From Candidatus Micrarchaeota archaeon (GTDB lineage: Archaea > Micrarchaeota > Micrarchaeia > Anstonellales > Bilamarchaeaceae), in NCBI GenBank assembly GCA_040753215.1, contig JBFMEZ010000025.1, positions 74,440 through 138,439 of the forward strand: a stretch of DNA of 64,000 nt. Reading direction: 5' to 3'. Below, one piece after another: positions 23,335 through 64,000 of the stretch. Below the pieces are notes generated by a model that did no database searches, had not been told where the DNA came from, and saw only the letters and a list, made by a program, of their open reading frames with translations. Each line of letters starts with the position of its first letter. Position 1 is the stretch's first letter. Position numbers and translations under genes: made by a program.

Positions 23335-23396
23335 ATCGCTCGGCGCAAAAAGGAGCCCAAAAACCTCAAGCTCCTTTACCTCATTTCTCTCTACGT

Positions 23397-33394: not shown

Positions 33395-33460
33395 CCTAAA
33401 TCACCTTAAATTACTGAAGCAGCTCCACCATCTTTTCCTTAAGAAGCCACTGCGCTCCGA

Positions 33461-33561
33461 ACCGCGGGGAGAGCGCTCCCCCCATTCAGTTTCCTGTTTC
33501 CAGCCTCCAGTTTCCCTAAACCCTAAACGGGAAACCGGGAACTCTCTGACCCCCTCCCACT
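33461..33561 (+). repeat. Family B repeat (copy B3) fused to an inverted GTTTC-heptamer hairpin, flanked by a ~50-bp duplication of the upstream gene's 3' end
   Basis: The displaced copy 33411-33460 encodes AQWLLKEKMVELLQ*. The current gene end 33562-33611 encodes EEAQWLLKEKMAELLQ*. Confidence 0.7.
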
Positions 33562-34119
33562 TCATTGTAGGAGCTCTGCCATCTTCTCTTTCAGAAGCCA
33601 TTGGGCCTCCTCACCAGGCAGCTCCGCCTCGTCCCCCGTCTTGAAGGGCCCGTAGACCTTCTCGTCCAGCCCTTTGTAGGGGCTTATATCTTTTACGAAC
33701 TTAATTCTTTTAATGTTTGCCTTCCCGCCCCCGACCACAACCGCATCCGTCCCTGAGACGGAAATACTGCACTTCTCCGCGTCCACGAGCCCGTGCATAG
33801 CTGCCTCGTTCCTGTCCACGACCTCCCTGAGCCGGGCCAGGAACTCCTTCTCCTCCGGAGTCAGCCCCTTCACCTCGCTCTTCCCGCGCAATGAAATGAG
33901 CACAATCTTTTCCATCCTCTTGTTGATGATGCCTTTCGCAATCCTCTTCACGTTCTCGCATTCCTTTATCACGAGCAAATTCTGCGAAGAAAGCGCCTCG
34001 CTCTTCCTCGCTTCGAGAAAAGCCCTCAGCTCCGGGTAGAACCCCTCATCAAGGGCCGCGAGCTCCGCGTTCTGCATCTCGGAGCGCTGCAACTCCCTCA
34101 GCCTTGAGTACGTGAGCAT
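33562..34119 (-). CDS. Hypothetical protein, possibly GINS (Gins51-like) by size and conserved neighbourhood
   Basis: 185 aa with a helical N-terminal half and a beta-rich C-terminal half. It is located upstream of rpl44e, as gins51 is in many euryarchaea. Confidence 0.3.
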   Translation of the reverse strand: MLTYSRLRELQRSEMQNAELAALDEGFYPELRAFLEARKSEALSSQNLLVIKECENVKRIAKGIINKRMEKIVLISLRGKSEVKGLTPEEKEFLARLREVVDRNEAAMHGLVDAEKCSISVSGTDAVVVGGGKANIKRIKFVKDISPYKGLDEKVYGPFKTGDEAELPGEEAQWLLKEKMAELLQ

Positions 34120-35240: not shown

Positions 35241-35333
35241 CAAGAAGAAGGGGGAAGGCGTTCCCCCCTCTCTTTAGGGTAATCATACCCCCCTTCCACT
35301 TCACTTCGTCACTCTTTGCACGTGCTCCTTACG
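35241..35333 (+). repeat. Family B repeat, copy B4
   Basis: Reads aagaagaagggggaaggcgttcccccctctctttagggtaatcata...cttcacttcgtcactctttgcacgtgctccttacgc. Confidence 0.75.
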
Positions 35334-35375
35334 CCCGACCGAAAGAGATTAAATCCACGCCCCAGAACATCTCGT

Positions 35376-35867
35376 ATGCAGATAATCATAAGGAAAGCCC
35401 GCCCGGGCGACATCGAACTGCTCGCGCCCATGTGGAGGGAACTCACCAATTACCATACTATTCTCGCAGCCAGAAATCCGGCAAGAAAAGAGTTTACCGC
35501 AATGGTCGGAAACGCAGAATCACTATGGAGAAAGTGGATTCTGAAATGGATTCGCTCGCCCAACGGGCTCGTGCTGATAGCGGAGCATGCCGGCAAGCCA
35601 GTCGGTTATTCCTTCAATTTCATCAAGAAATCCAATCCGGTGTATCGCGTAAATAAGATGGGCTGCATGAGCGACCTTTACGTCGCACCCGGCTACCGCA
35701 ATAAAGGAATTTCCTCACGATTCAGGGACGAAGCATTCAAGTGGTTCAGAAAGAAGGGCTTGAGGCACGCTTGCATAGGCGCCCACGGCTCCAACAAAAG
35801 AGCCCTGAGCATTTATCGGAAATGGGGTTTCTTCGACTTCTCAGTTGATCTAAGAAAGAGGATATAA
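35376..35867 (+). CDS. GNAT family N-acetyltransferase (cassette cargo)
   Basis: Acetyl-CoA binding motif region GYRNKGISSRF. The protein is ~163 aa starting at MQIIIRKARPGD. Confidence 0.7.
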   Translation: MQIIIRKARPGDIELLAPMWRELTNYHTILAARNPARKEFTAMVGNAESLWRKWILKWIRSPNGLVLIAEHAGKPVGYSFNFIKKSNPVYRVNKMGCMSDLYVAPGYRNKGISSRFRDEAFKWFRKKGLRHACIGAHGSNKRALSIYRKWGFFDFSVDLRKRI

Positions 35868-37549: not shown

Positions 37550-38533
37550 ATGGGCGATTATGTTTCCCGCAATGCCAATCCTGTCCTTAAGAGCATAGCG
37601 CCGGTTGTCGAACGTTCGGTGCATGTCCGGATAGACTGGGACCGGTTAAAGCAATTTGCCAGCCGGTTCATGGAAGGCAACATAAGGCACTGGGTGGCAG
37701 CCTCCCACGTCGACCTCTCAGGCATGGGCGCCGATGAGAAACTAGCTTTCCTATTCGTCTTCAATTCGATCAGCTTCAGCTACTGGGGCAGCCCGAAATG
37801 GTCGGTTCCGCTCGAGGGCGTGCCCCAGCGCGGAACCCTCTACATGCTCCACTGCCTGCGCAGGGCGGTGGCCGAAGGGAAGCCCATCCTGAACCCAGAC
37901 TACCTCGCCACAATCCGCAGGGAGGAACTCGCGGAAATCCTGAAAGGAACCCCTGAAATCCCTCTTCTCGACGCGCGCAACAATATACTCCGGCAGCTGG
38001 GCAGCGTGACCGCCACCGGCTGGGGCGGCAAATTTTCAAATTACCTGGAAGCCGCATGTGGGGATGCGGTGGACCTCCTACTGGTCATTGAACACGCCCT
38101 GCCGTCTTTCTGGGATGAGCCATGTTACGGAAATGATGGCGTGAGGGTTTTCTTCTACAAGCGCGCCCAGCTTCTGGTTTCAGATATCCATGCAGTATTC
38201 AACGGCGAGGGATACGGTGATTTAGTGCGCACCGAAAAACTGACCGCATGCGCCGACTATATTCTCCCCATGGTTCTCAGGCACCATGGCATACTCGTGT
38301 ACAGCCCTGTTCTCGCGGATGTTGTCGATAACGGAGTTGAGGTCAAAAACGGCAGCGATGAAGAAATCGAGATAAGGGCCAACACCGTATTTGCGGTAGA
38401 ACTGCTAAAGAGCGAGCTTCTTGGGAGGTTTCCGGGCATAACCTCCATGCAACTGAACGATTATCTCTGGCTCTCAAGAACAAGGCTTCCAGAAGGCGTG
38501 AAACATCATCTCACAAGGACAACTGCCTACTGA
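37550..38533 (+). CDS. DUF2419 / Qng1-like protein (queuosine 5'-phosphate N-glycosylase/hydrolase family)
   Basis: Several segments align to human C9orf64/QNG1: VFFYKRAQLLVSDIHAVFNGEGYGD, ADYILPMVLRHHGILVYS, EEIEIRANTVFAVELLK, and LNDYLW. A TATA-like TTTTTATATT lies about 25 nt upstream of the MGDYV start. Confidence 0.65.
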   Translation: MGDYVSRNANPVLKSIAPVVERSVHVRIDWDRLKQFASRFMEGNIRHWVAASHVDLSGMGADEKLAFLFVFNSISFSYWGSPKWSVPLEGVPQRGTLYMLHCLRRAVAEGKPILNPDYLATIRREELAEILKGTPEIPLLDARNNILRQLGSVTATGWGGKFSNYLEAACGDAVDLLLVIEHALPSFWDEPCYGNDGVRVFFYKRAQLLVSDIHAVFNGEGYGDLVRTEKLTACADYILPMVLRHHGILVYSPVLADVVDNGVEVKNGSDEEIEIRANTVFAVELLKSELLGRFPGITSMQLNDYLWLSRTRLPEGVKHHLTRTTAY

Positions 38534-38559
38534 AACTGGAAACCGAGAACTGGATGCTG
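38521..38559 (-). terminator. T-rich heptamer array 3' of tRNA-Gly(GCC)
   Basis: The transcribed strand reads aaatcagttttcagcatccagttctcggtttccagtttca. Confidence 0.45.
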
Positions 38560-38630
38560 AAAACTGATTTGCGGCCGCCGGGATTTGAACCCGGGTCGCC
38601 AGATTGGCAATCTGGAATCCTACCGCTAGA
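38560..38630 (-). tRNA. tRNA-Gly (anticodon GCC)
   Basis: Reads GCGGCCGTAGTCTAGCGGTAGGATTCCAGATTGCCAATCTGGCGACCCGGGTTCAAATCCCGGCGGCCGCA. The anticodon stem is ccaga/tctgg with loop ttGCCaa. Confidence 0.85.
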
Positions 38631-40790: not shown

Positions 40791-40808
40791 CCAGTCCCCC
40801 GTTTCCAC

Positions 40809-40900
40809 ATCGCTTCGCGATGACTCCATGTTGCCTCGGCAACAACTGGCGAAGTTCTGCGGAACTTCACCATGGCAGAAACCTTCCGGGTTTCCGCCAT
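40809..40900 (+). repeat. Family A repeat, copy A4, overlapping the 5' end of the PHP gene
   Basis: Reads atcgcttcgcgatgactccatgttgcctcggcaacaactggcgaagttctgcggaacttcaccatggcagaaaccttccgggtttccgccat. Confidence 0.8.
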
Positions 40901-41538
40901 CCAGTTTCCCGAAGCTAAACATTGACTTCCACGTGCACACCTCCTTCTCTTCGGATGGAAGGATAAAATTAGCTGAACTCGCCTCCCTTTCCAAACAATT
41001 CGGAATAATCCCCGCCCTCACCGACCACAACAACATGGATGCCTGCTCCCCCTTCAAAAAATTCGAAATCCCCTTCATCCCCGGAGAGGAAATCCGCGTT
41101 GCACAGGGCGATTTCATAGGCCTCTTCCTCTCCGAGCCGATTCCTGAAGGGATAGATTTCTACGAAGCCCTCGACTTAATCCGTGCGCAGGGAGCCCTCG
41201 CTTATGTCCCGCACATGTTCGACGCACTCCGCCCCGGAGTAGTAAAGGAGGAATACGGAAAAGCCGCAGACATAATAGAAGTATTCAACGCCCGCTCCTT
41301 CGCCCGCTTCGACAGGCAGGCAGAAGAATTCGCCAAAAGGGAAGGCAAATTAATGGCGGCAGGAAGCGACGCCCACTTCCCGTTCGAATTCGGGCACACT
41401 TATACCGAATTAAGCCTCACCCCAGACCAACTGGAACCCAAATCTCTTCTCCGCGCTTTAAAGAATGCGAGAATAGCAGGAAAGCGCACTTCTTTTCTCA
41501 AGAGGAAAATAGCGAAATATACCGGAATCTACATCTAA
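40828..41538 (+). CDS. PHP-domain phosphoesterase; the only in-frame ATG lies inside repeat A4
   Basis: The PHP motif begins at LNIDFHVHTSFSSDG, with a later GSDAH motif. No ATG/GTG/TTG lies between the repeat and the first His motif. The annotated N-terminus MLPRQQLAKFCGTSPWQKPSGFPPSSFPK is therefore repeat-encoded. Confidence 0.6.
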   Translation: MLPRQQLAKFCGTSPWQKPSGFPPSSFPKLNIDFHVHTSFSSDGRIKLAELASLSKQFGIIPALTDHNNMDACSPFKKFEIPFIPGEEIRVAQGDFIGLFLSEPIPEGIDFYEALDLIRAQGALAYVPHMFDALRPGVVKEEYGKAADIIEVFNARSFARFDRQAEEFAKREGKLMAAGSDAHFPFEFGHTYTELSLTPDQLEPKSLLRALKNARIAGKRTSFLKRKIAKYTGIYI

Positions 41539-42509
41539 AGGAACTCCCTAATCGGGTTCAGCATCCTCTCTTCTATCGCAGAAATATATTTGTGGTTCCC
41601 AATCACATGCCCGAATTTGGTCTTTACCCCGCTTATGAACCTGTGCAGCTCAGCCGTATTCTCCACAATCACATCCACCTCAATGTCCCAGCTCCCTATG
41701 CACTTGTTCAGGAACACCACATTATCATGCTCAAGGCAGAAGCCCAGGAACTCCTTCTCCTTTTCTCTCGTAATGCTTCTAAAGTTTATCAAAATCTTAT
41801 AGTACTCAAACCCCATCCTCTTCGCATCAAACCACGCCGTATACCCAAGTATGAACCCCTCTCTAGTAAGCCGGTCCATCCTATACCTCACCGCATCAGG
41901 GGTGAGCCCAACCTTCCCAGCCAAATCCACCGTCGTCGCCCTCGCATCCCCATACAATGAAGCCAGTATCTTCATATCCGTTTCATCCCGCTTCTCTGCC
42001 TCCACCACCCTCTCCAGCGGGAACTCCGGGTGCCTCTCCCCTCCCACCGCCCTGTTCCACGATAAATATGTCTGGTACGTAGTAGTGACGACCGTCTTCT
42101 CCACAATCCTCGCCCCAAACCTTTCCGTCATCATATTTATCGCATCCTCCACCTCCTTCTCGTCCCTCGCTACAATCCTCCACAGCACGTCATACGCCCC
42201 CTCGCATACCACCCCCCAGAGCGTCCGCTTGTAGGATTCGAACAGCGCCACCACCTCCTTCTCCGCCTTCTCATCGAACACGTCAAATCTCAGGTAAATC
42301 CTGTATGCCTTGAAGCCCAGCTTCGCAAGGTTGACGTCAGCAAACAGCAGCGATATTGTGCCCGCCTCTCTGAGCTGCCTCATCCTCCGCTCCACTGCGC
42401 TGCTGCTCATCGGGGCGGTAATCCAGATGCTTTGACATTTTCTTTCTTTTATTTTTTCTGCATTATAATGCATAAAAATATGCAAAATTGTTTCGATGCT
42501 TTCCACCAA
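41535..42509 (-). CDS. Tandem-duplicated Lrp/AsnC family transcriptional regulator (two HTH_AsnC plus RAM units)
   Basis: Two HTH_AsnC segments (SSSAVERRMRQLREAGTI and ARATTVDLAGKVGLTPDAVRYRMDRLTREGFILGY) are each followed by a RAM-like domain. Confidence 0.65.
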   Translation of the reverse strand: MVESIETILHIFMHYNAEKIKERKCQSIWITAPMSSSAVERRMRQLREAGTISLLFADVNLAKLGFKAYRIYLRFDVFDEKAEKEVVALFESYKRTLWGVVCEGAYDVLWRIVARDEKEVEDAINMMTERFGARIVEKTVVTTTYQTYLSWNRAVGGERHPEFPLERVVEAEKRDETDMKILASLYGDARATTVDLAGKVGLTPDAVRYRMDRLTREGFILGYTAWFDAKRMGFEYYKILINFRSITREKEKEFLGFCLEHDNVVFLNKCIGSWDIEVDVIVENTAELHRFISGVKTKFGHVIGNHKYISAIEERMLNPIREFL

Positions 42510-42613
42510 TTGATACGCATTCTATTAAATCAATTTGAACAAATGACCATCAAAATATGAAATCAATTTTATAAAATGCATATATTTAAAAGGAATTAGC
42601 CCGTAATACTTAC

Positions 42614-43816
42614 ATGGACCAGGAACTCATTGAACTCAACAACGAAGCAAAAAAGGAAGGCAAAAAATACGCAAAAAAAAGGTTCATCTACCCGAAAATA
42701 GCCGCAGGGCTGGCGGAGCGCGAACACACTGCCCTCGTTGGCCCGAGGGGCGCGGGGAAGACAATCCTGCTTAAGCAGCTTCTTGCGGGCAACGAAAGCG
42801 CATTCTATGTTTCACTGGACACCTCAAGGATAGAAGGCGGGCTGTTCAGGCTTGCAAAAGAGCTATCGGATTCCGGCATCAAGCTGCTCCTTCTGGACGA
42901 GATACACGGCTATCCCGGCTACGATTTGGAGCTCAAGAGGATTTACGATTTCCTGGGAATCAAGATTGTCTTGACCAGTTCTTCTGCCCTTACCCTCCAC
43001 GAGCTGGCGGCCGACCTCTCCAGGAGGATGCGCATCATAAAAATCAGGCCGTTCTCCTTCAGGGAATACCTGTTCTTCCAGAACGATGAGCTGCTGGAGC
43101 CCCTCAGCTTCGTGCAGTTATCCGATGAGAAATCTTCACGGGAATATCTGGGCAGAGCCCTCCATGCTGAACCCCGCCTGGAAGAATACATGAAGGGAAG
43201 GAATTATCCGCTGGCGCTCGGGAGGCAGGATTTCCTGCCGTTGTTCAGGAACATCCTTGAAACAGTCATAAACAGGGACCTGATCAGGACAGGGAAGGTC
43301 AGCCACGACGAAACCCTCCATATCGCCAGGCTCGTGGCATATCTCGGCAAATCCCATCCGGAGGATATGAACTACACATCCATTGCAAAGAACATAGGCA
43401 TAAGCAGGCATATGGCCGAAAAATACGTGGGTCTGCTGGAAAAGGCATTCGTGTTGCATGTGGTGCCGCCGGAAGGGCAGGGCGTCATGAAGGAGCCCAA
43501 GGTGCTCATTGCCCTCCCGTACCGCCTCCTCTATCGCCCATACGAGGAGTGCATCGGAGCCCTGCGCGAGGACTTTTTCGTCGATTCTGCCGTCTGGCTC
43601 GGCTTCGGCCCAAAATATCTCAAAACCAACCGTGGGGAAAAAACCCCGGACTATGCGATTGACGATACGGTTTTTGAAATAGGAGGACCAGGCAAGGGGC
43701 ATTCCCAGTTCAAGGGGTTCGCACTGAAGAGGAAGATAATACTGACACATCCCGGAATGCTTGATGCAATGCGCCGGCCACTATTCTTCATGGGCTTGCT
43801 GGAAGAAGGGCAGTGA
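42614..43816 (+). CDS. AAA ATPase of the AAA_14/DUF4143 family (COG1373)
   Basis: Walker A reads GPRGAGKT and Walker B reads LLLDEIH. A C-terminal DUF4143-like domain is present. Confidence 0.7.
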   Translation: MDQELIELNNEAKKEGKKYAKKRFIYPKIAAGLAEREHTALVGPRGAGKTILLKQLLAGNESAFYVSLDTSRIEGGLFRLAKELSDSGIKLLLLDEIHGYPGYDLELKRIYDFLGIKIVLTSSSALTLHELAADLSRRMRIIKIRPFSFREYLFFQNDELLEPLSFVQLSDEKSSREYLGRALHAEPRLEEYMKGRNYPLALGRQDFLPLFRNILETVINRDLIRTGKVSHDETLHIARLVAYLGKSHPEDMNYTSIAKNIGISRHMAEKYVGLLEKAFVLHVVPPEGQGVMKEPKVLIALPYRLLYRPYEECIGALREDFFVDSAVWLGFGPKYLKTNRGEKTPDYAIDDTVFEIGGPGKGHSQFKGFALKRKIILTHPGMLDAMRRPLFFMGLLEEGQ

Positions 43817-43920
43817 CCAGGGAAGATATCCGCAGATTTGCAGCCTCAGATTGTCGGTTATGGAAGGAAAAAATCCGCAAAAGTTTCCTTCCATGTTAGA
43901 CGCCTTATAGCATCGTTTTT

Positions 43921-44122
43921 CACTGAACCTCCACGGCTCGGTCACACCTTGTAGTCGCCTGCGTGGCGGCGATAGGTCTGCCTAGCCATTGGGTGCGGCT
44001 ACAAGGTGTGAGGAAGCCTCGGCATTTATGCCGGGGAGGAGAGCCGAGGCTTCCTCTAAAGGCAGCAGGAATACATCTGCCCTTTATCTACGAAGAAGCC
44101 ACGGCCTTTAGTGGAGGTTCAC
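43921..44122 (+). repeat. Family C ~200-nt structured repeat, copy C1
   Basis: 99% identical to 46120-46325. The ends (cactgaacctccac...gtggaggttcac) are inverted-repeat-like and can pair. It has internal hairpins (gaggaagcctcggc/gccgaggcttcctc and caccttgtag/ctacaaggtg). Confidence 0.8.
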
Positions 44123-44186
44123 AAAACGCTTATTTAAGAAGATACCATTAATCGCAAAAACGATAAATGACTCGGTCCGACGATGA

Positions 44187-44882
44187 CTATTTTTCTCCAA
44201 CCACAATCGCAAAATTAGCTAAAGGTGGCACCAGCACCCGTGTTTTTCTGAACCCAAACCCATCCATAATCTTCTTCAGCTCAAGTGGGCAGATAGGGTA
44301 TTCCTTCGGATGCTTTTCCTGGTACTCCTTGCTCATGCCTTTCAGCGCCTGCGCCCAGCTCCGGTCGAATTCTCTTGCCCTTTTTGGATTCTTCTTTCTT
44401 AATCTCCAAACTTTTTCCTTATACTCGCTACTGGGCTTAAACCAGTCCCCTATCACCAGTCTTCCGCCTTCACGAAGAGACTTCCGTATCCGGGAAATAA
44501 CAGCCGCCTTATTCTTCACGTGATGAAAAGCGAGGTTGGAAACCACATAATCTGCACGCCCGCCGAACCCCTCTATCGGAGAAGCTTTGAATTTCATATT
44601 CTTAATTCCAGCAACCCTAACCTTCCCCATTGCTACCTTCATCATGCCTTTGGAAACATCCACGCAAGTTACCTGCGCCTTCGGCTTCCTCTCCGCAAGC
44701 CTTATGGCAAGCCCTCCACTCCCGGCTCCCAGGTCCGCCACCCTGCATTTCCGGTCCGGAACCTCCCTTATTATGTTGTCCACAAGCCATCTGTAAAACA
44801 AGTATTGGTACCTGTCCTGCTCTTCGTACTCTTTCGCGTATTTATCGAAGAACTCCTTTGCCTTTTTCACAATCAAAACCAC
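44187..44882 (-). CDS. Class I SAM-dependent methyltransferase
   Basis: SAM motif I reads VADLGAGSGGLAI. The start is a GTG that overlaps the stop of the displaced fen-1 tail. Confidence 0.75.
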   Translation of the reverse strand: MVLIVKKAKEFFDKYAKEYEEQDRYQYLFYRWLVDNIIREVPDRKCRVADLGAGSGGLAIRLAERKPKAQVTCVDVSKGMMKVAMGKVRVAGIKNMKFKASPIEGFGGRADYVVSNLAFHHVKNKAAVISRIRKSLREGGRLVIGDWFKPSSEYKEKVWRLRKKNPKRAREFDRSWAQALKGMSKEYQEKHPKEYPICPLELKKIMDGFGFRKTRVLVPPLANFAIVVGEK

Positions 44883-44945
44883 TTATCCAAAGTCCGCTGG
44901 CTCCGCGTCTCCTTCACGTTGCTCATCATCCCTTCCAGCGCCTTC
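44876..44945 (-). other. Displaced duplicate of the fen-1 3' end (last 22 codons, ending in a canonical PIP box)
   Basis: It encodes ALEGMMSNVKETRSQRTLDKWF*. The current gene end is EGMLSNVKETRSQRTLDKWL*. Nucleotide identity over 70 bp is about 70%. Confidence 0.75.
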
Positions 44946-44951
44946 TCCCGG

Positions 44952-45020
44952 AAAAACGCGGGGAACCCAGGTTCCCCCCATTTTTACCGTTTATTCTGAC
45001 CCCCTCCTAACGGTTTTCAG
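44952..45020 (+). repeat. Family B repeat, short copy B7, lying between fen-1 and its displaced 3' end
   Basis: Reads aaaaacgcggggaacccaggttccccccatttttaccgtttattctgaccccctcc. Confidence 0.7.
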
Positions 45021-46054
45021 AGCCACTTATCCAATGTTCGTTGGCTTCTTGTTTCTTTTACATTGCTTAGCATTCCCTCTAAAGCTCTTTCTACCCTCTC
45101 CCTTGAGAAATCGTGCTCCTCCACCAACAATTCTATTACTCCCTCCCTGCTCGCCTTCCCCCACCCCAGCTCTCCGACCTCCTTCACTGGCGGGCTCATG
45201 AAAAAACCGAAAATCGCCTCCACATCCTCAGGAAACTCATATCCCTTCTCCTTCTTCAAATATGCCCTCACCTTCTCCAGCGTATCATTCTCTTTCACAA
45301 TCTTCAGACCGGTTTTCGGCCCAATCCCCCGCACCCCTTCATTGAAATCCGTTCCCACAAGAATCCCAATCAAAATCAATTGCTCCCTCTTCAGCCCAAG
45401 CGCCTTCAGCGTCTCTTCCAGCTCCACCCTCTCAATCTCTATATCTATGAACCTATTCTGCTTCGGCACCTTCCTTTTCCCGGTAATGGACAAATTCCTC
45501 AAAAGCACCGGCGACCCAAATAGAACCGAATCATAATCCTGCGATGCGGCCGCATAGCAAAGCCCTGTCCCCACCATCCACGCTGCCTGCGCCTCCCCTT
45601 CAGAGGGCGCCTGCACCCAGGGAATCCCCATCAGTGAAAGCAGCCTCTTCCCCTCATCCACCATCTCCTTGGTGAGCCGCGAGCTTGCCTGCGCATATTT
45701 CCTCGCCTCCTCAATTTTCTCCTCCGCAAGCGCCTTCTTCCATTTGTGCTCCGCCTCCCTCCGCACCTCTATCCTTTCCTCTATAGTTTTCCTCTTGAAT
45801 TCCGGCGGAGGCCCGTCAAACACATAAATAGGTTTTATCCCAGCATTCACCAATCTTATGCTCCTGTAAAATAGCCCAGATAAATGCCCGGTCACCCGCC
45901 CCTTCATATCCATTAAGGGCGTCCCGTCCTCCTGCCTTATGGAAGCCAAAAATTGATAGAGTATATTCATCCCATCTATCGCTATGCTCTTTCCCGCAAG
46001 CTCCTCCAGCTCGACCTTGTGCTTAATTGCAAGGTCGCCCAAATCTACTCCCAT
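45017..46054 (-). CDS. fen: Flap endonuclease 1
   Basis: The XPG-N and XPG-I motifs and the N-terminal sequence MGVDLGDLAIKHKVELEELAGKSIAIDGMNILYQFL are present. The C-terminal PIP-like box reads QRTLDKWL. Confidence 0.9.
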   Translation of the reverse strand: MGVDLGDLAIKHKVELEELAGKSIAIDGMNILYQFLASIRQEDGTPLMDMKGRVTGHLSGLFYRSIRLVNAGIKPIYVFDGPPPEFKRKTIEERIEVRREAEHKWKKALAEEKIEEARKYAQASSRLTKEMVDEGKRLLSLMGIPWVQAPSEGEAQAAWMVGTGLCYAAASQDYDSVLFGSPVLLRNLSITGKRKVPKQNRFIDIEIERVELEETLKALGLKREQLILIGILVGTDFNEGVRGIGPKTGLKIVKENDTLEKVRAYLKKEKGYEFPEDVEAIFGFFMSPPVKEVGELGWGKASREGVIELLVEEHDFSRERVERALEGMLSNVKETRSQRTLDKWL

Positions 46055-46119
46055 CCTAATCCTCGCTTACCTATAATCAGGCATACTTTTATTTCTCTGC
46101 CTGCCGCAGCCGGCAGACT

Positions 46120-46325
46120 CACTGAACCTCCACGGCTCGGTCACACCTTGTAGTCGCCTGCGTGGCGGCGATAGGTCTGCCTAGCCATTGGGTGCGGCTA
46201 CAAGGTGTGAGGAAGCCTCGGCATTTATGCCGGAGAGGAGAGCCGAGGCTTCCTCTAAAGGCAGCAGGAATACATCTGCCCTTTATCTACGAAGAAGCCA
46301 CGGCCTTTAGGCCGTGGAGGGTCAC
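46120..46325 (+). repeat. Family C repeat, copy C2
   Basis: See copy C1. This copy ends in the perfect hairpin gccacggcc-ttta-ggccgtggag. Confidence 0.8.
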
Positions 46326-46872: not shown

Positions 46873-46932
46873 TTGCCAGGTGCGATGCCACTAATCGGTT
46901 CTCAGTTTCCGGCTCCCAGTTTCCAGAACCAT

Positions 46933-49467: not shown

Positions 49468-49782
49468 GTGAAGAAAATGGAGGAAAGATTGGAGGAGTTT
49501 GAGGAAATAGAGGAGCCAAAAAAGGGGAGAAAGCCAAGTTCTGATGAGTCCGAATCCGCACCGAGCGAAAGCGTTGGCGCGAGGCCGGACTTCCGCGTGG
49601 TCCAGACCGAAAGGGATGCGGAGGGCAAGACAATATACAAGAACGTGGGTGGGCTCTGGAAGCGCACGAGCAAGAATGGAAACACATACTACAGCATGAG
49701 CATAGGCCGATTGAGGCTGCTCGTATTCCCTAACGACAGGGATGGTGGTTCTTATGGCAGAGAAGACAGAGAAGAAATATGA
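49468..49782 (+). CDS. Hypothetical acidic/basic small protein
   Basis: 104-aa ORF with a strong Shine-Dalgarno-like sequence (aaaaggtgaag) about 8 nt upstream. Confidence 0.4.
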   Translation: MKKMEERLEEFEEIEEPKKGRKPSSDESESAPSESVGARPDFRVVQTERDAEGKTIYKNVGGLWKRTSKNGNTYYSMSIGRLRLLVFPNDRDGGSYGREDREEI

Positions 49783-52252
49783 GCTCCCGAAGGAGCTGGA
49801 GGACCTTCCTGGAATAGGGGAGGCGACCGCGGAGAGGCTGCGCAAGGCCGGTTATACATCTATGGACCAGATTGCGGCCGCGATGCCCCACGAGCTCGCG
49901 GAAGCGGGTGAATTCGGGGCGGAAGCCGCAAAGAAGGCCATCGCAGTTGCGCAGGAAGCTGTGGAGACCGGCTACGAGACCGCGGACCTGATATTCGAGC
50001 GCAGGAAGGAAATCAAGAGGATTCCAACCGGCTCCAAGAACTTCGACGATTTGATTGGAGGCGGAGTGGAGACCCAGGCAATCACCGAGTGCTTCGGAAA
50101 GTTCAGTTCTGGGAAATGTGTTTCCGGGGATACCCCGCTGGTCTTCTTCAATTCCAGCTCCCCGCACATTCGCTCCTTTGAGGACGTATATAATACATAC
50201 AAGACCGAAGAGTTCGAGCAGGATGGCGGCACATTCTCCGTTCCCTCAAAGGAACTGCACGTGCTCAGCCTCGGGGATGACTGCCAATTGAGGAAGGAAA
50301 AGGTCCAGCACCTCTACAAGGAGAAAGTAACTTCGATACAAGAGATGGAAACCTCCCGCGGCTCGGTCATAAAGGCGACGAAGAGGCACCCGCTCCTCGT
50401 TTTCTCAGAAGAAGGGATGGAGTGGAAATCTTCTGGCCTTCTTTCCGAAGGGGCGTACGTTGCGGTGCCAAAAGAGATAAGGACAGAATCAGAGACGGAG
50501 ATAAGCGCAGAGGATGCATATTTCCTCGGCCTCTTTGCCGCTGAGGGTACAGCCAATCCATTCAGCATAACCAACTACGATGAAAAAATAAACGCAAAGC
50601 TGCACGACTACATACGAAAGAGGTTCGGCAGGGAGCCGTCCTTCAGGAAGGAGAGGGGCCTCACGCTCCTTTTCAAGGACGCAGAACCTTTGCTCGGGGA
50701 GCTCGCCTCTTCCAATTCCGGGACGAAGTTCATACCGGACAGCGTGCTCAGCGGAAGTGATGAGATTGCTGCCTCATTCCTGTCGGGCTACATAGATGGC
50801 GACGGCTTCGTCTCCAACTGCCCCGAGCTTTGCACGAAATCCGCAAAACTCGCCTCCCAGCTGACCTACCTCCTTTCCCGCTTTGGGATAGGCTGCTCGG
50901 TCAGGCACAAGAAGGTGGAGGAGAGCAGGTTCTACAGGATTTTCATAACCGACGCAGGAAGCAAAACGCGCCTCATGAAAATCCTGGGCCAGAGCACGAA
51001 GGGCCTGGATGCGCTTTCCTGCGAAGGCAAGCACTCGGAATACGGGATTCCGTCCAAACCATTGCGCACAATCCTGAAGCGGCTGCACGGGAAGCTCTCA
51101 GGCACGCACAGGAGGGACATCTCGGCCAAGAAGGCGGAAATAGCGGAGGGAAAGTTCTTCAGCCTCTATTTTAACTACCTTGCAAGGACTCCCGCGACCC
51201 GCGTGGCCACGGAAGAAACCGTGAAGCTTGCCCTGGATTTCTACAGGGAGAGGGTAGGGAAGATGCGCGGGCACGAGGCGCTCCTCTCGGAGCCAACAAG
51301 TGAAAAAATCCTCAACGCGCTTAGGGACATTCTGTTCAAGAGCACTGCCCTTGTGCAGAGGCTCGGGATAAAGAGGCCGACCTTCCAGAATTTCGTAACC
51401 AGGAAGAAAGTTCCGGAGGAAAGGGTTGCGCAGGTCGCCTCGGCTATCCGCACCCTTATTGCGGAGACTCTCTCGGACCCAGCCCTTGCAAAAGACCTCA
51501 AGACGCTGGAACTGCTCGCAAACGGGAACATGCGCTGGGAAAAGGTCATAAGGATGGAAGAGAAGCCCTACGACGGATATGTGTACGACCTGGTCGTTCC
51601 GGGGGCGCACAACTTCGTCGCTGGCTTCAAGCCGATGCTGATGCACAACACGCAGGTCGGCTTCCAGCTCGCGGTGAACGCCCAGAAGGCCCTCTCAGCC
51701 AACGGAACGCCCGCAAGGGTCCTCTTCATAGACACGGAAAGCACCTTCCGCCCGGAGAGGATAATCCAGATTGCGGAGGCGCAGGGGCTGGATCCGCAGG
51801 AGGTCCTGAAGAACATCCTCGTCGCCAAGGCTGAGAACTCAGACCACCAGCTGATTCTCGTGGAAAAGGCCGGCAACGTAATCGAGAAGGAGAACATTAA
51901 GCTGATAATAGTCGACTCCCTCACCTCCCACTTCCGCGCTGATTACGTAGGCAGGGGCGCCCTTAGCGAAAGGCAGCAGAAGCTGAACAAGCACATCCAC
52001 ACCCTGCAGAAGTATGCGGACAAGTACAACATCGCAATCTATGTGACCAACCAGGTCATGGACAACCCGGGGATTCTTTTCGGGGACCCGACCATGCCGA
52101 TTGGAGGCCACATTTTGGCGCACGCAGCGACCTACCGCCTCTACCTGCGCAAGAGCAAGGAGGAAAAAAGGATTGCGAGGCTCGTGGATTCGCCCAACAT
52201 GCCCGAAGGCGAGACGGTCTTCAAGGTCACGAAGGGCGGCGTAATCGATTAG
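49757..52252 (+). CDS. radA: DNA repair and recombination protein RadA, interrupted by a 511-aa intein with LAGLIDADG homing endonuclease domain (intein approx 50117-51649)
   Basis: The N-terminal HhH reads LPGIGEATAERLRKAGY. The Walker A motif is split GKFSSGK|CVSGDTPL...MLMHN|TQVGF. The intein carries LAGLIDADG motifs YFLGLFAAEG and LSGYIDGDG. The exteins total 325 aa, typical of RadA. Confidence 0.9.
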   Translation, partial: AEKTEKKYELPKELEDLPGIGEATAERLRKAGYTSMDQIAAAMPHELAEAGEFGAEAAKKAIAVAQEAVETGYETADLIFERRKEIKRIPTGSKNFDDLIGGGVETQAITECFGKFSSGKCVSGDTPLVFFNSSSPHIRSFEDVYNTYKTEEFEQDGGTFSVPSKELHVLSLGDDCQLRKEKVQHLYKEKVTSIQEMETSRGSVIKATKRHPLLVFSEEGMEWKSSGLLSEGAYVAVPKEIRTESETEISAEDAYFLGLFAAEGTANPFSITNYDEKINAKLHDYIRKRFGREPSFRKERGLTLLFKDAEPLLGELASSNSGTKFIPDSVLSGSDEIAASFLSGYIDGDGFVSNCPELCTKSAKLASQLTYLLSRFGIGCSVRHKKVEESRFYRIFITDAGSKTRLMKILGQSTKGLDALSCEGKHSEYGIPSKPLRTILKRLHGKLSGTHRRDISAKKAEIAEGKFFSLYFNYLARTPATRVATEETVKLALDFYRERVGKMRGHEALLSEPTSEKILNALRDILFKSTALVQRLGIKRPTFQNFVTRKKVPEERVAQVASAIRTLIAETLSDPALAKDLKTLELLANGNMRWEKVIRMEEKPYDGYVYDLVVPGAHNFVAGFKPMLMHNTQVGFQLAVNAQKALSANGTPARVLFIDTESTFRPERIIQIAEAQGLDPQEVLKNILVAKAENSDHQLILVEKAGNVIEKENIKLIIVDSLTSHFRADYVGRGALSERQQKLNKHIHTLQKYADKYNIAIYVTNQVMDNPGILFGDPTMPIGGHILAHAATYRLYLRKSKEEKRIARLVDSPNMPEGETVFKVTKGGVID

Positions 52253-56750: not shown

Positions 56751-57155
56751 TCAGCCAGCCTCCTCATGGGCCCTTCCCCCCTTTTCCCTGTATGCCTTTT
56801 CAAGCCTCGCGAACTCCTCGTCAGCCTTCCTGAGCTCGTTCCTGAGGTTCTGGATTGCGGCCTCAGTCATCTTCATGCGCGCATCTATCTCCTTCTTCGC
56901 GCCCTCCGCATCGTATTCCATTATGTAGTTCGCGCCTACCGGGATGTACACCTTCTTCGCCTCAAGCCTCGCCTTTATGAACGCCCCGCCGCCCACGGGC
57001 ACGAGCCCCTGCTCCTCCTTCATCTGGGCGATTGTGGTGAGCGAATTGTTCAGGTCCAGCATGGAGAGCATCATCCTCTCCACCTCCCTCTCTATGTAAT
57101 TCCTCTGCTGCCCCACAAGCCTTGCCCGCGAAACGATCTCTTCCCTCTCCATCAT
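56751..57155 (-). CDS. pfdA: Prefoldin alpha subunit
   Basis: Coiled coil - beta hairpin - coiled coil architecture with motif YIPVGANYIMEY. The conserved position between rplX and ftsY also supports the call. Confidence 0.75.
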   Translation of the reverse strand: MMEREEIVSRARLVGQQRNYIEREVERMMLSMLDLNNSLTTIAQMKEEQGLVPVGGGAFIKARLEAKKVYIPVGANYIMEYDAEGAKKEIDARMKMTEAAIQNLRNELRKADEEFARLEKAYREKGGRAHEEAG

Positions 57156-57171
57156 CCCACCTTTTCCAGAG

Positions 57172-57262
57172 AAAACGCGGGGGAAGCGTCCCCCCCATTT
57201 TCTTCTATCTCTCTGACCCCCCTCAACTTCGCATCAAAATTCTTCTGACTTCTTCTTACGCT
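57172..57262 (+). repeat. Family B repeat, copy B8, inserted between rplX and pfdA
   Basis: Reads aaaacgcgggggaagcgtcccccccattttcttctatctctctgacccccctcaacttcgc...cttcttacgc. It is flanked by similar ~11-18 bp segments ggagaaggtggtctagatga / ggaaaaggtgggatgatgg. Confidence 0.7.
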
Positions 57263-57274
57263 CCTAGCCGTCAT

Positions 57275-57450
57275 CTAGACCACCTTCTCCACGTTCTCGA
57301 CCTTTATCATGCTCCTCGGTATCCCGTTCGCCGCCCCGAGCAGCATGTAGGCCTTCTCCACCGCGAATTTCTCGGTGCCTGCCTCGACCTCCTTGGCGAA
57401 CTTTCTCCACTCCCTTCCAAGCCTCATCGTCCCGCTTACCCTGAATTTCA
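57275..57450 (-). CDS. rplX: Ribosomal protein LX (L18Ae)
   Basis: Translates to MKFRVSGTMRLGREWRKFAKEVEAGTEKFAVEKAYMLLGAANGIPRSMIKVENVEKVV. At 58 aa it is below the ORF-track cutoff. Confidence 0.7.
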
Positions 57451-57487
57451 TATTTTCACCCTATTCCATCTATGAATCACTATTTCC

Positions 57488-57808
57488 TCATCCCACCTTT
57501 GCCCCTTCGCCCACATCCCTGTCCACCGTCAGCAGCACAACCCCTTTATCGTCCCATGCCGCCAGCAGCATCCCCTGCGATTCCAGCCCCATCATCTTTT
57601 TCGGCTCCAGGTTTGCTAGCACCACTATCTTCTTCCCCACAACCTCCTCAGGCGCATAGTCCTTCCCGATTCCGGCGACCAGCTGCCTCCTTTCCGTTCC
57701 GAGGTCCACATCCATCCTCAGGAGCTTCTCCGAGCCCTGGACCCTCTCCGCGGCGGCCACCCTCCCGATGCGCATCTCCAGCCTGGCGAAATCCGCATAG
57801 CTTACCAT
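57488..57808 (-). CDS. tRNA-binding domain protein (Trbp111/CsaA/EMAP-like OB fold)
   Basis: The protein starts MVSYADFARLEMRIGRV and continues ...LVAGI...ESQGMLL. 106 aa. Confidence 0.7.
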   Translation of the reverse strand: MVSYADFARLEMRIGRVAAAERVQGSEKLLRMDVDLGTERRQLVAGIGKDYAPEEVVGKKIVVLANLEPKKMMGLESQGMLLAAWDDKGVVLLTVDRDVGEGAKVG

Positions 57809-59433: not shown

Positions 59434-59452
59434 ATAAGTCCCCAGTTTCTAT

Positions 59453-59544
59453 ATCGCTTCGCGATAACTCCATGTTGCCTCGGCAACAACTGGCGAAGTT
59501 CTGCGGAACTTCACCATGGCAGAAACCCCCCGGGTTTCCGCCAT
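59453..59544 (+). repeat. Family A repeat, copy A5 (between rps19e and the PDCD5-like gene)
   Basis: Reads atcgcttcgcgataactccatgttgcctcggcaacaactggcgaagttctgcggaacttcaccatggcagaaaccccccgggtttccgccat. Confidence 0.8.
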
Positions 59545-59570
59545 CCGGTTCCCAGTCCCCGGTTCCGCGC

Positions 59571-61996: not shown

Positions 61997-63511
61997 TTAC
62001 CCCTTCCCTATTCGGCTACCCCTCAGCCAGTCCAGATCATTCTTATAGAACGTCCTTATATCCGCAAGCCCTTCCATGAGCATCATCGGCCTTTCCAGGC
62101 TCAGCCCCCACGCAAGCACCGGATAAACGCCGCAGAGCGGCTTCGTCATCTCGGGCCTGAATATCCCGGCCCCGCCAAGCTCCATCCAGCCCCCGGTTCC
62201 CGGCGAACCAAACCTCCGCTCCTCCTTCCCTTCAGTTGCTCTGGAGGTTTGGTTCGGTTCCCCGTTTCCGGCTTTCCGCTCAAAAAATACCTCTATCTCC
62301 AGGCTCGGCTCCGTGTACGGGAAATAGCTCGGCCTGAACCTTATCTTCTCAAACCCCAGCCTGCTGTAGAACTCCTTCAGCAATCCGAGAAGGTGCCTGA
62401 AGTTCGCCCCGTCCCACGCCACTATGCCCTCCACCTGGTGGAATTCCGCAAGGTGCTTGAAGTCCGTCGCCTCGTTCCTGAACACCCTTCCCACGCAGAA
62501 GTATTTTTTCCCCTTCCCCCCGCTTTTCCTGAGCGTCTCATCCAGCTTCGCGAGGTACCTCGCGCTCACCGCGGTCGTGTGTGTGCGCAGAACCATCTTC
62601 CGTGCCTCTTCCGCGCTCCATGGGCATTTCCATCCTTCCTCATGGCTCTTCTTCACCTTCTCTACTATTTTCCTGTCCGGCAGCTCCCCGTCCATTTCCA
62701 GATAGAAAGTGTCCGCCAAATCACGGGCAGGGTGGTCCTGCGGCTGGAACAGGGCATCGAAGTTCCAGAACGCGCTCTCGACCATGGGCCCCTCCATCTC
62801 CTCGAATCCCATCTCTATGAAAATCCTCCTTATCCTTTCCGTCATCCGCGTCAGCGGGTGCATCTTGCCCACCGGCTCATCAGCCGCCGGCGCGACCGCA
62901 TATGGGCTGAACTCCGCGCCCTTCCACTTCCCGCTCACGATAATCCCATGCGTCAGCTCGCCGATCTCCTCCCCCATCCCGCCGATTCCCTTCGCCTCCC
63001 CCTCGCCCTTTTTTGTGAGCGCCACGAGCATCTTCCTGTGTTCGCTCTCCAGGAGCAGCCCCCTCCCCACGAGGGTTTCCAGTTCCCGGTTTCCCGTTTC
63101 CAGCTTCTCCGGCTCCCTCGCCGCCTTCTCAAGCGCATACTCCCCCGGCTTCCTGACCGCCTTTACCCTCCCGTTCTCAATCGCAATCCAGCCGTTCTTC
63201 TTCGCCCACATCACCCCTATTCTTTTTTCTTCTTCACTCAGTTCCCCCACCGCCTTCCCGCCCTTCGCCGCAACCCTCACTTCCGGGAACCCTTCCCTCA
63301 AAAACCGTTCGCACTCCGCGCTCCTCGCATATTCTTTCGCGGCCCTCTCCTCCACTTCCACAAGCCCCTTCTCCTGCAGCCAGAGCGCCGCCCTCCTGAA
63401 CGCGTCCAGCTCTCCGGGCCCCTTCGCAAGGGCTTCCAGGCCGTGGCTGCCGGCTCCGGCATCCAGAAGCCTCTTCAGCAGAATCTTTTCCGTCCTGTGG
63501 AGTATCATCAC
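61997..63511 (-). CDS. pheS: Phenylalanyl-tRNA synthetase alpha subunit (archaeal type)
   Basis: The class II core motifs FRNEATD...EFHQVEG and the C-terminal motif 3 are present. Two in-frame heptamer-array insertions are present (PEKLETGNRELETLVG and ERKAGNGEPN). Confidence 0.85.
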   Translation of the reverse strand: MMILHRTEKILLKRLLDAGAGSHGLEALAKGPGELDAFRRAALWLQEKGLVEVEERAAKEYARSAECERFLREGFPEVRVAAKGGKAVGELSEEEKRIGVMWAKKNGWIAIENGRVKAVRKPGEYALEKAAREPEKLETGNRELETLVGRGLLLESEHRKMLVALTKKGEGEAKGIGGMGEEIGELTHGIIVSGKWKGAEFSPYAVAPAADEPVGKMHPLTRMTERIRRIFIEMGFEEMEGPMVESAFWNFDALFQPQDHPARDLADTFYLEMDGELPDRKIVEKVKKSHEEGWKCPWSAEEARKMVLRTHTTAVSARYLAKLDETLRKSGGKGKKYFCVGRVFRNEATDFKHLAEFHQVEGIVAWDGANFRHLLGLLKEFYSRLGFEKIRFRPSYFPYTEPSLEIEVFFERKAGNGEPNQTSRATEGKEERRFGSPGTGGWMELGGAGIFRPEMTKPLCGVYPVLAWGLSLERPMMLMEGLADIRTFYKNDLDWLRGSRIGKG

Positions 63512-63537
63512 TGCTCCCTCTTTTTCCTCGCCAAGAC

Positions 63538-63650
63538 AAAACGCGGAGGGGGGCGCCCCTCCTCATTTTTTCCTGGATGGTGAAATTCCGCAGAATTTCG
63601 CCAGACATCGCCGCAGCGATGCAGATTTTCTGATCCTCCCCCCACTTCAC
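63538..63650 (+). repeat. Family B repeat (copy B10) with a nested inverted partial family A copy (A6, 63579-63624)
   Basis: Reads aaaacgcggaggggggcgcccctcctca, then rc(tggcgaagttctgcggaacttcacc...), then cctccccccacttcac. It is flanked by ttttcctc-containing direct repeats. Confidence 0.7.
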
Positions 63651-64000
63651 TCATCCTCCGCTTTTCCTCTTCCTCGCTTGTAGATAGAAATACGAGCCCG
63701 CCACTATCAGCACGAGCAGCAGCGCGGGTACCCCCTGCGGGCCGCGCAGGAAACCGTAAAGTTCCGTCCTCGCGCCTATGAAGAAGCCGACCACCTCCTG
63801 GTCCAGGCTCTCCTCCTTCTCGAATATGAGCGAGAAGTGCGCGAGCACCTCGTTCTGCCAGCTCATCTGCACCCTCCCGCCACTCTCGGCGCTCTCCTCC
63901 GGCAGCGGGCTCACGTAGAGCACCTTCGCCCCCTGCGGCAGCTCGAAGGTGATCCTCTGGTTCTCCCCCAGTATGACATCCCCGAGCTCGCTCGTCTCGA
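63651..64000 (-). CDS. C-terminal part of a protein with C-terminal TM anchor and basic tail (gene continues beyond window end)
   Basis: The ORF ends ...ALLLVLIVAGSYFYLQARKRKSGG*. Its upstream sequence runs off the window. Confidence 0.4.
   Translation of the reverse strand, partial: ETSELGDVILGENQRITFELPQGAKVLYVSPLPEESAESGGRVQMSWQNEVLAHFSLIFEKEESLDQEVVGFFIGARTELYGFLRGPQGVPALLLVLIVAGSYFYLQARKRKSGG

Follow-up and report, generated by a model that had tools for sequence, protein, structure and literature searches.

Tyrosine-integrase elements, such as e14 and phage 21 in icd, sit in the 3′ ends of tRNA or protein-coding genes. Long target duplications of variable length are known from two further systems. 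Insertions of IS1634 and IS1549 are flanked by long direct repeats of 8–514 bp, for which no model of the mechanism has been put forward (PMC2266710). In the "insertion with long target duplication" of restriction-modification (RM) genes described by Nobusato, Furuta and Kobayashi, the duplications measure ~30 to >100 bp, no other mobile element is involved, and some of the repeats overlap gene 3′ ends (PMC2853133). Here we analyzed a 64,000-nt stretch of a Candidatus Micrarchaeota metagenome-assembled genome (MAG), hereafter the window, in which a hairpin-forming repeat of 60–115 nt, family B, separates the gene for flap endonuclease 1 (fen-1) from a second, displaced copy of its own 3′ end. 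B is a structured mini-element with a sharp right end; dozens of copies exist, and related genomes differ in whether an orthologous site has one.

Family B at fen-1 and in related genomes

Features of the fen-1 site are read on the minus strand of the window. The gene itself (45017–46054) is an intact open reading frame (ORF) of 345 aa, and its product carries XPG_N/XPG_I domains and is 100% identical to an NCBI Micrarchaeota MAG protein. As claimed in an earlier reading of the letters alone, which we call the original prediction, a 69-nt B element follows the stop codon (TGA, 45019–45017) directly: it is a short form (AAACCGTTAGGAGGGGGTCAGAATAAACGGTAAAAATGGGGGGAACCTGGGTTCCCCGCGTTTTTCCGG; 45016–44948) with a profile match of E = 3e-13, and runs from a filler through the G-run GGAGGGGG, TCAGAA, an outer stem, A5, a GC hairpin and U5 to CCGG. 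Upstream of B lies the attached tail of the gene, X1 (45091–45017; 75 nt), which comprises the last 24 codons plus TGA and is synonymously recoded. Downstream lies the displaced fen-1 3′ end, X2 (44947–44873; 75 nt), which is near-ancestral and encodes EKALEGMMSNVKETRSQRTLDKWF*. A second copy of the last 22 codons had been proposed; the copy is present, and its real length is 24 codons plus the stop. The two translations read as proposed, with the attached end giving ...SQRTLDKWL* and the displaced end the canonical ...SQRTLDKWF*. X1 and X2 are 79% identical, and their local alignment scores 46–64, against a 99th percentile of 27 in mismatched-flank controls.

Empty counterparts, which the original prediction hoped to find in related strains, exist for two window sites. 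The fen-1 site is empty in five relatives (L001–L004, L005/L006, L156, L157 and the P0005 gene table), and the GINS site described below is empty in L005. A further relative, L007, whose FEN-1 is 83% identical, carries a different B subtype with a 45-nt displaced copy at fen-1. Because the window FEN-1 is closer to that of the empty L001 (89%) than to that of the filled L007, the two fen-1 fills are independent. The STC_97 genome, empty at fen-1, has B at other places. By a flank-pairing search we identified about a dozen further pairs of filled and empty sites in which the size gap equals B plus filler plus duplication; examples are a gap of 121 nt beside the topoisomerase VI B gene and one of ~230 nt for L040-484.

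Comparison of relatives also turned up rearrangements at B-bearing loci. At L028 670–774, compared with L095, a tRNA-Leu gene is inverted beside B in one genome, and at L021 2152–2240, compared with L117/L015/L064, a ~225-nt block of B plus tRNA-Asn is present in one genome and missing in five others. One gene end, seen in L091 (8481–8568) and L120 (577–634) against L025, has two tail alleles, GAGAGGCATTAG and GAA(A/C)GGCACTGA + TTATAG, which lie on opposite sides of B in two related genomes, while the third genome is empty. This arrangement suggests tandem hits followed by alternative deletions.

We searched one-genome-per-species GTDB contigs and metagenome contigs with a two-gap pattern built from the window copies. 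The pattern matched 59 GTDB loci and 89 metagenome loci, which together yielded 127 non-redundant exact-pattern copies; a profile of the family made 187 matches in ~1 Mb of loci. Apart from four chance matches, all GTDB loci belong to Micrarchaeota, Bilamarchaeaceae or "ainarchaeum" MAGs, and the family is restricted to Micrarchaeota MAGs. No IMG/VR viral contig matched the pattern, and a viral origin of B was rejected on this basis. Rfam 15 recognized only tRNAs above the gathering threshold in the window, the best sub-threshold match being a long B at E = 0.3, so that B corresponds to no known RNA family in that collection. A full-text search of the literature on Micrarchaeota and DPANN repeats and on long variable-length duplications gave no description of B. 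As far as this search shows, B is an undescribed family; the type of insertion is itself known but unexplained.

The long form of B (~110 nt; 60% of copies) has the 5′ end GCGTAAGGAGTACG...CAAAGTGAAGTG, the short form (~60 nt; 29%) begins at the G-run, and intermediate forms make up 9%. As left ends are mostly of two kinds, a continuous 5′-truncation series, as in long interspersed nuclear elements (LINEs), was rejected. The core consists of a G-run with one A or T, TCAGAA, a variable segment of 3–5 nt, A5, U and a GC hairpin with variable loop, followed by GCG, U5 and the complement of the variable 3–5 nt. Near-identical cores occur in unrelated contexts.

The fold is supported by covariation. 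Across 34 diverse copies, 94.9% of stem cells are paired, and changes on both sides of a pair are found in 84 cells, compared with 28.7 ± 4.6 in shuffles (none of 500 as high); when partner columns are slid by one as a control, pairing falls to 62–67%. The three outer stem pairs are seen as CG, GC, AU and UA. A U-G pair occurs in 29 of the 34 copies, along with several G-U pairs, all of which would be C-A mismatches on the opposite strand, and the fen-1 B folds more stably in the sense direction (−33.8 kcal/mol, z = −2.9) than in the antisense (−24.9 kcal/mol). The folded form is therefore the strand that shares the sense of the upstream gene, and most simply it is RNA. In a pattern scan, B fits the intrinsic-terminator pattern (GC-rich stem-loop plus T run) on both strands, and with its covarying sense-strand stem it looks like a terminator hairpin.

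A count rule connects the 5′ G-run with the hairpin: from the A or T of the run to TCAGA there is one G more than there are C's from the T of the hairpin's 3′ strand to GCG. We checked this by eye in the family alignment, and every variant checked obeys it (window copy, 45010–44958). The G-run is a mirror repeat of the purine strand of the hairpin, not its Watson-Crick complement, an arrangement that would suit either a purine-motif triplex or a protein making a symmetric contact.

Each B was examined for direct repeats shared by its upstream 200 nt and its downstream 90 nt, with the 99th percentile of mismatched-flank controls as the cut-off. Whether B might lack adjacent 3′-end duplications in wider data, a question raised by the original prediction, is answered by duplications above control at 21 of 62 copies in genome loci and 33 of 127 with metagenome loci added. 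The predicted layout, in which a gene end is followed by B and a displaced 3′ copy, is confirmed and is repeated in about 20 Micrarchaeota MAGs. Duplication lengths range from 15 to 101 nt, and in all flagged pairs X2 begins 1–7 nt (mostly 3–7) past the CGCGTTT of B. Young pairs, with identical copies, occur at rpl39e and tRNA-Gly in the window and in L016, L029, L032, L040, L058, L059, L077, L127 and L134; several diverged pairs retain an identical 5′ block of 13–51 nt. The 5′ edges of the duplications show no consensus among targets, so there is no common core.

The duplicated block spans a stop codon, a tRNA 3′ end or a stop/start junction, so that the upstream gene stays whole and the downstream gene keeps its signals. 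Since both genes are intact after insertion, gene boundaries are tolerated sites in these compact genomes. X1 and B either adjoin or are separated by a filler of 10–40 nt or by an interval of 0.3–1.3 kb, which contains a small gene in both window cases and in L127; no insert larger than ~1.3 kb was present among the cases found. The right end of B lies within a few nt of a tRNA terminus in 34 of 131 copies (26%), 16 at a same-strand 5′ end and 18 at an opposite-strand 3′ end. Where a tRNA is duplicated, the repeat begins at position 38 in the anticodon loop (L127 and L063) or in the T arm (two window sites, L025, L048 and L059).

By our own count, the attached copy ends in TGA in nine of ten coding cases (fen-1, 45019–45017, and GINS, 33564–33562, in the window; L007, L026, L038, L040, L053, L121 and L152), and the stop of the native, displaced copies is TAG, TAA or TGA. 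The TGA of X1 coincides with B's own GTGAAGTG in several short forms, and in others it comes from a small deletion that makes a TGATG stop/start overlap. L025 (recurring in L091 and L123) is the only locus with two head-to-head B copies, and it has a 21-nt flanking repeat.

Synonymous recoding of the attached gene end

The diverged pairs differ almost exclusively in ways that spare the protein. Of the 86 differences in eight coding pairs, 70 affect the third, 12 the first and 4 the second position of a codon, and in a hand tally of real-frame pairs plus two window pairs ~71 same-amino-acid codons differ, compared with ~9 codons that change the amino acid. Read from X2 to X1, the eight coding pairs contain 34 G>A and 11 A>G changes. 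At fen-1, the fraction of codons ending in A (A3) is 0.52 over the last 23 codons, against 0.09–0.30 in the rest of the gene. Over the same codons, 69–93% of same-amino-acid codons differ from those of relatives, against 31–39% over the whole gene; the ortholog baseline is 31–44%. X1 and X2 differ at 16 of 19 same-amino-acid codons (hand count), and set against the ortholog baseline this led us to reject ordinary synonymous-site saturation. The fen-1 X2, by inspection, is identical to the empty-site L005 at ~13 of 17 same-amino-acid codons.

Outgroups place most of the change on the attached copy. With three outgroups, 17 of the 22 fen-1 differences in the window are derived on X1 and 4 on X2, and in L007 11 changes fall on X1 versus 1 on X2. 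Both copies also have residues that no relative has, namely SN...T in the window and S in L007. A tail donated by a distant or low-GC relative was rejected for fen-1, as the closest protein relative of X1 is the window X2 and the nearest relatives are empty. A single error-prone or deaminase-type burst of G>A change was likewise rejected: by hand count, 12 of 17 third-position G's have changed, compared with 0 of ~14 first- or second-position G's. Symmetric selection to lower repeat identity, as a guard against deletion or antisense pairing, was rejected too: it would be served equally by changes in the non-coding X2, and the observed changes are on X1 and at third positions. The divergence of X1 looks like stepwise change under protein constraint.

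The effect extends beyond duplicated genes. The 60 nt upstream of 119 B copies have an A content of 0.31 against a baseline of 0.235 and are poor in G and C; in the 60 nt downstream, A is not enriched. Over the last 20 codons of genes ending at B, A3 is 0.35 with a diverged duplication and unraised with an identical one, compared with 0.11–0.16 further upstream. In genes that end at B without a detectable duplication (n = 33) it is 0.24, compared with 0.16 further upstream, a crude ORF control giving 0.18–0.21 versus 0.156. The unraised identical pairs, the A-rich upstream flank and the rise of A3 without duplication together point to change in place near B. Since A pairs with neither the G-runs nor the C-run of B, selection may keep the upstream RNA from disturbing the B fold; a strand-specific local mutation bias is an alternative source of the A-richness.

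These results bear on the proposal in the original prediction that the element supplies a ready-made replacement 3′ end, which we do not retain. Many pairs are identical, like target-site duplications; both fen-1 X1 copies carry residues of the host lineage, with changes that outgroups place after insertion; and A-ending codons are raised near B even without a detectable duplication. The divergence of X1 and X2 looks mostly like later recoding in place, plus some introgression of alleles. The latter is exemplified by L038 and L040, whose flanks are 80–86% identical. Identity is 95–100% from the gene tail through X1, the filler and B into the first 17 nt of X2, and the remainder of X2 has four differences, each of them synonymous if read in the old frame. 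In L038, the high-identity tract begins ~55 nt upstream of X1. From this comparison, filled alleles appear to have spread horizontally as well, between related lineages by homologous recombination, and such introgression would explain pairs in which an identical 5′ block gives way to diverged sequence.

Other sites and neighbouring genes in the window

A profile search located 10 B copies in the window, all on the minus strand, to which the coordinates below refer unless stated otherwise. Several of these had been listed in the original prediction as further instances of the fen-1 layout, and most of them hold up. At the GINS-like gene (33411–33611), both X1 (33606–33562) and X2 (33455–33411) were found around a B (33561–33456) that is split by heptamer repeats, with the L005 ortholog as the empty site. 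At rpl39e/rpl31e, an exact 15-nt repeat, AGGAGTGAGAGCATG, lies on both sides (58991–58977 and 58894–58880) of a 5′-shortened long B.

Two tRNA genes with cargo, also foreseen, both have displaced tRNA 3′ copies. tRNA-Gly(TCC) (23211–23141) is followed by heptamers, a cytidine-deaminase gene (23024–22635), a long B (22639–22533) and a tRNA-Gly(TCC) 3′ fragment (22530–22508) that is a 23-nt repeat of 23163–23141. tRNA-Thr(CGT) (36078–35871) contains a ~130-nt insert at position 37/38 and adjoins a long B variant (36180–36090). Its cargo, a GNAT gene (35316–35867), lies on the strand opposite to the tRNA, and the right part of the locus consists of another long B variant (35339–35251) and the tRNA 3′ fragment, X2 (35238–35215). 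L127 has the same GNAT insertion at tRNA-Thr(CGT); its repeat measures 36 nt and begins at position 38 of the tRNA. The insert in the window tRNA, at the canonical 37/38 intron position, consists of a family-A repeat, other copies of which lie at 8342–8460, 40793–40911, 59437–59555 and, in part, 23288–23337, together with GGAAAC-type heptamers. A dispersed repeat thus occupies the place of a tRNA intron; the orthologous tRNA in L127 is without the insert.

Two listed cases stood only in part. In the rplX/pfdA region (57150–57505), a long B (57267–57168) followed by GGAAAAGGTGGGATGA and similar gene ends are present, but the case is ambiguous, with three (A/E)KV(G/V)* ends and the best X2 match (15 of 16 nt) in the gene before rplX. 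Within 57150–57510, two of these ends lie at the stops of ORFs, one of 154 aa and of unknown function and one of 58 aa, and the third lies after B, just before pfdA; we take the 58-aa ORF to be rplX and the gene after B to be pfdA. The three ends suggest that events at a single junction were nested or repeated. This B is also crossed by a 40-codon ORF. At the gene upstream of pheS (63505–63690), a B split by a family-A repeat (63652–63622 and 63573–63533) lies between similar tails, but the duplication is weak, at ~27 nt with identity limited to the first 8 nt. A further long B variant (38776–38641) lies directly upstream of tRNA-Gly(GCC) (38640–38570).

T-rich heptamer arrays (GTTTCCN on the plus strand) occur at 12–13 window sites, directly after tRNA genes and at many gene ends (for example 1634–1669, 5207–5263, 18306–18341, 23100–23140, 38530–38569 and 46897–46932), and one lies inside the GINS B. 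At fen-1, a methyltransferase gene (44187–44882, minus strand) starts at the end of X2. It is part of a ~3.5-kb block (41535–44882) between the displaced fen-1 tail and a PHP gene; the block also contains an Lrp/AsnC-like regulator, an AAA_14/DUF4143 ATPase and one copy of a 192-nt repeat. The block is missing from all relatives examined, in which the convergent PHP gene directly adjoins fen-1. The two direct copies of the 192-nt repeat (43920–44111 and 46119–46310; 99% identical) lie on either side of the methyltransferase gene and fen-1 and contain nested inverted repeats (CACACCTTGTAGTCGCC.../GAGGAAGCCTCGGC...); L074 and L107 have partial matches to it, and Rfam gave none. RadA (49742–52252) is 836 aa long and includes an intein that has a LAGLIDADG homing-endonuclease domain; its orthologs in L001–L007, at 321–323 aa, are without the intein.

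Explanations for B and comparison with known systems

We favour, with confidence about evenly poised, the explanation that B, as a non-autonomous element, generates a long target duplication when it inserts and that recoding beside it follows. Insertion would be polar and anchored at the right end of B, with a trans-acting enzyme encoded elsewhere, and could carry upstream donor sequence along, such as the fillers and the GNAT and cytidine-deaminase genes. The target would be broken at points 15–100 nt apart, or a recombinase would act in trans, and an insertion would survive only if the repeat spans a stop codon or tRNA end. X1 and X2 would be identical at the start. X1, co-transcribed with B, would then be quickly recoded at synonymous sites, mostly from G3 to A3, probably because G/C-rich sequence upstream competes for pairing with the G and C runs of B, and X2 would meanwhile drift slowly. 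Filled alleles would pass between related lineages by homologous recombination, and B itself may act as a terminator or insulator RNA hairpin.

Several observations weigh against this explanation. The enzyme search described below yielded no candidate, so that the case for mobility is carried by sequence comparison. tRNA duplications that begin at the anticodon loop (L127 and L063) or the T arm (five cases) fit a site-specific integrase better than staggered cuts made at random. In at least eight cases X1 ends at the last sense codon and the stop becomes a TGA that partly overlaps GTGAAGTG, an exact fusion that is easier to explain if X1 belongs to the element. Three quarters of B copies are without a duplication; some filled/empty pairs have a duplication of ~0–20 nt, others are intergenic replacements, and some are tRNA inversions or replacements and not clean insertions. 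The direction of recoding is not universal, as it is the downstream copy that stands out in L152 and L120. In both fen-1 cases, moreover, the recoded block starts exactly where the duplication starts, which would not be predicted by a pure distance-from-B effect.

A search for an enzyme covered the window and the surroundings of B elsewhere. A Pfam scan of 40 window ORFs found no integrase, transposase, Cas1, reverse transcriptase (RT) or TnpB. Among 378 ORFs within 2.5 kb of B in the other loci (~150) no gene family is enriched, the largest having at most 5 members, and a helper gene beside B was rejected on this basis. Frequent neighbours include aRF1, FttA, topoisomerase VI A and B and permeases; none of the ten commonest families is a recombinase. 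The original prediction had no integrase in view, and none appears among the 40 window ORFs scanned or these ten families; nor does an autonomous relative of B with a DDE transposase.

The principal rival, which we consider unlikely but still a substantial possibility, follows the integrase likeness drawn in the original prediction: a tyrosine or serine recombinase would act in trans to move small integrative elements, of which B is the conserved arm. Such an element would bring X1 with its own TGA and integrate at a short core at the 5′ edge of the repeat, so that X2 is the displaced host end. The diverged replacement 3′ end left by phage 21 or e14 in E. coli icd is a precedent. Such an origin would account for tRNA repeats that start at the anticodon loop or T arm, for cargo genes between X1 and B and for an X1 that is more derived and AT-richer, as expected of element DNA. 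The identical 13–51-nt 5′ blocks of several diverged pairs resemble a core, but no core is conserved among targets. The near identity of the X1–B unit in L038 and L040 across diverged genome flanks fits as well, but the high-identity tract of L038 starts ~55 nt upstream of X1, as in homologous recombination. X1 has host-lineage residues and diverges far above the level of orthologs, and many pairs are identical. Units of 75–200 bp are too small for duplex circularisation, and no insert above ~1.3 kb was found. Neither an integrase in the 40 window ORFs scanned, an enriched family near ~130 B copies nor a viral-contig match came to light.

A different possibility, and quite an improbable one, is that B is immobile, a conserved terminator or tRNA leader, with duplications that arise from slippage, unequal crossing-over or recombination among dispersed B copies. 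The strong structural constraint on B would follow naturally, as would the 26% of copies at tRNA termini, the presence or absence of B-plus-tRNA units as blocks, the tRNA inverted beside B and the three quarters of copies without a duplication. Clean filled/empty pairs at protein-gene ends, with a size gap equal to B plus duplication, argue for insertion instead, and so do the two independent fen-1 fills with unlike B subtypes and duplication lengths, the same X2 boundary at unrelated targets and the near-identical cores in unrelated contexts.

The contrast between a recoded X1 and a near-ancestral X2 could also reflect a "home-and-rescue" drive, in which RNA of B plus X2 would serve as scaffold and guide, a nuclease encoded elsewhere would cut naive alleles, and repair would bring in B together with an X1 recoded so as to resist cutting. 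Several of the targets are essential, being tRNAs or core genes of replication and translation (fen-1, GINS and ribosomal proteins), and the structured RNA that the sense strand of B would form has a sharp 3′ boundary beside X2. We regard this as very improbable: many pairs are identical, including all tRNA cases; several diverged pairs are identical next to B, exactly at the would-be guide seed; A3 is also raised at B genes without a duplication; and neither a nuclease candidate nor a conserved motif adjoining the targets was found. Chimeric joining of strains at the repeat during assembly, conceivable in that all sequences are MAG or metagenome contigs, has a negligible probability, as X1–B–X2 spans only 150–220 nt, about one or two assembly k-mers (k = 141 in contig names), and the same layout recurs in independent assemblies from different assemblers, with some contigs from different samples 100% identical across it.

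Insertion of a non-autonomous B with a long target duplication thus remains the explanation that we favour. A bolder version, tentative and fairly unlikely, is that B is the cis element of an undescribed DPANN insertion system, in which a host enzyme would copy or recombine a one-ended hairpin into gene and tRNA boundaries and duplicate 15–100 nt so that core genes survive, the attached copy being driven to a new synonymous coding. In that case the mirror covariation of the G-run with the purine strand of the hairpin would hint at an unusual recognition structure, triplex-like or protein-read. Micrarchaeota and other DPANN have tiny, tightly packed genomes, and little is known of how DNA moves in them. 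The B family marks many gene and tRNA boundaries in such genomes; it would move between orthologous sites, sometimes carry small accessory genes and rearrange tRNA loci. It is a clean natural case of the long variable target duplication known since the 1990s from IS1549/IS1634 and RM-gene insertions, for which a mechanism is still lacking. The very fast, one-sided synonymous recoding of a gene end beside a structured element bears on how RNA structure or local mutation relates to codon choice. Annotators of such genomes should read tRNA fragments and short pseudo 3′ ends as footprints of B and not as decayed paralogs.

The original prediction could name no mobile-element class that fits. B does lack defining features of miniature inverted-repeat transposable elements (MITEs), integrase elements, diversity-generating retroelements (DGRs), casposons and integron cassettes, but its long variable duplications have precedents. 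Casposons were rejected on the basis of no Cas1 in the window ORFs, a duplication of variable length and not of a fixed 14–15 bp, and no inverted ends seen. A DGR, with its variable and template repeats (VR/TR), was rejected as well, the mismatches being mostly G in X2 and A in X1, 70 of 86 at third positions with the protein kept, and no RT being seen in the ORFs scanned. MITEs and the repetitive extragenic palindromic repeats and bacterial interspersed mosaic elements (REP/BIME) are, like B, short, non-coding, multi-copy hairpins at gene ends, often terminator-like, and are mobilised in trans. B shares with MITEs many short non-coding copies with presence/absence variation. However, MITEs have inverted ends and short duplications of fixed length, and REPs have no duplication, whereas B has duplications of 0–101 nt (15–101 nt in flagged pairs, ~0–20 nt in some filled/empty pairs), one sharp end and a place at tRNA termini. 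By our own reading, its left end (GCGTAAGGAG... or GGGGGAGGG...) is not an inverted copy of its right end (...CGCGTTTTTNNN).

Integrase elements resemble B in the order of gene end, insert and displaced 3′ end, in their anticodon-loop and T-arm sublocations and in copies that differ synonymously; a tRNA crossover at the anticodon loop or T loop with duplication of the 3′ part is present at B. No integrase gene in or next to the element was seen in the ORFs scanned, and a common core among targets is missing. Unlike integrase elements, B has inserts of at most ~1.3 kb and as small as 60 nt, many targets for one family and an X1 from the host's own lineage. The attC sites of integrons and CTX-type folded att sites share with B a covarying hairpin 3′ of small, promoter-poor cargo such as GNAT; B has no array, no intI and no attI, and its dispersed copies have target duplications. 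Target-primed insertion of LINEs and short interspersed nuclear elements resembles B in its precise 3′ end, shortened or extended 5′ side, variable duplications and co-mobilised upstream sequence, and differs in that B has two left-end classes and no A-tail and that no RT was seen in the ORFs scanned.

The closest likeness in the duplications themselves is to the two systems with which we began. IS1634 and IS1549, like B, have long direct repeats of variable length. They are autonomous, however, with a DDE transposase and terminal inverted repeats, whereas B is 60–115 nt long, shows no inverted ends and no transposase nearby, has two left-end forms and sometimes carries upstream DNA. RM-gene insertions share with B the long target duplications, some of them at gene 3′ ends. 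These insertions are single events with no shared structured junction repeat, whereas in family B one hairpin marks the right junction across many genomes.

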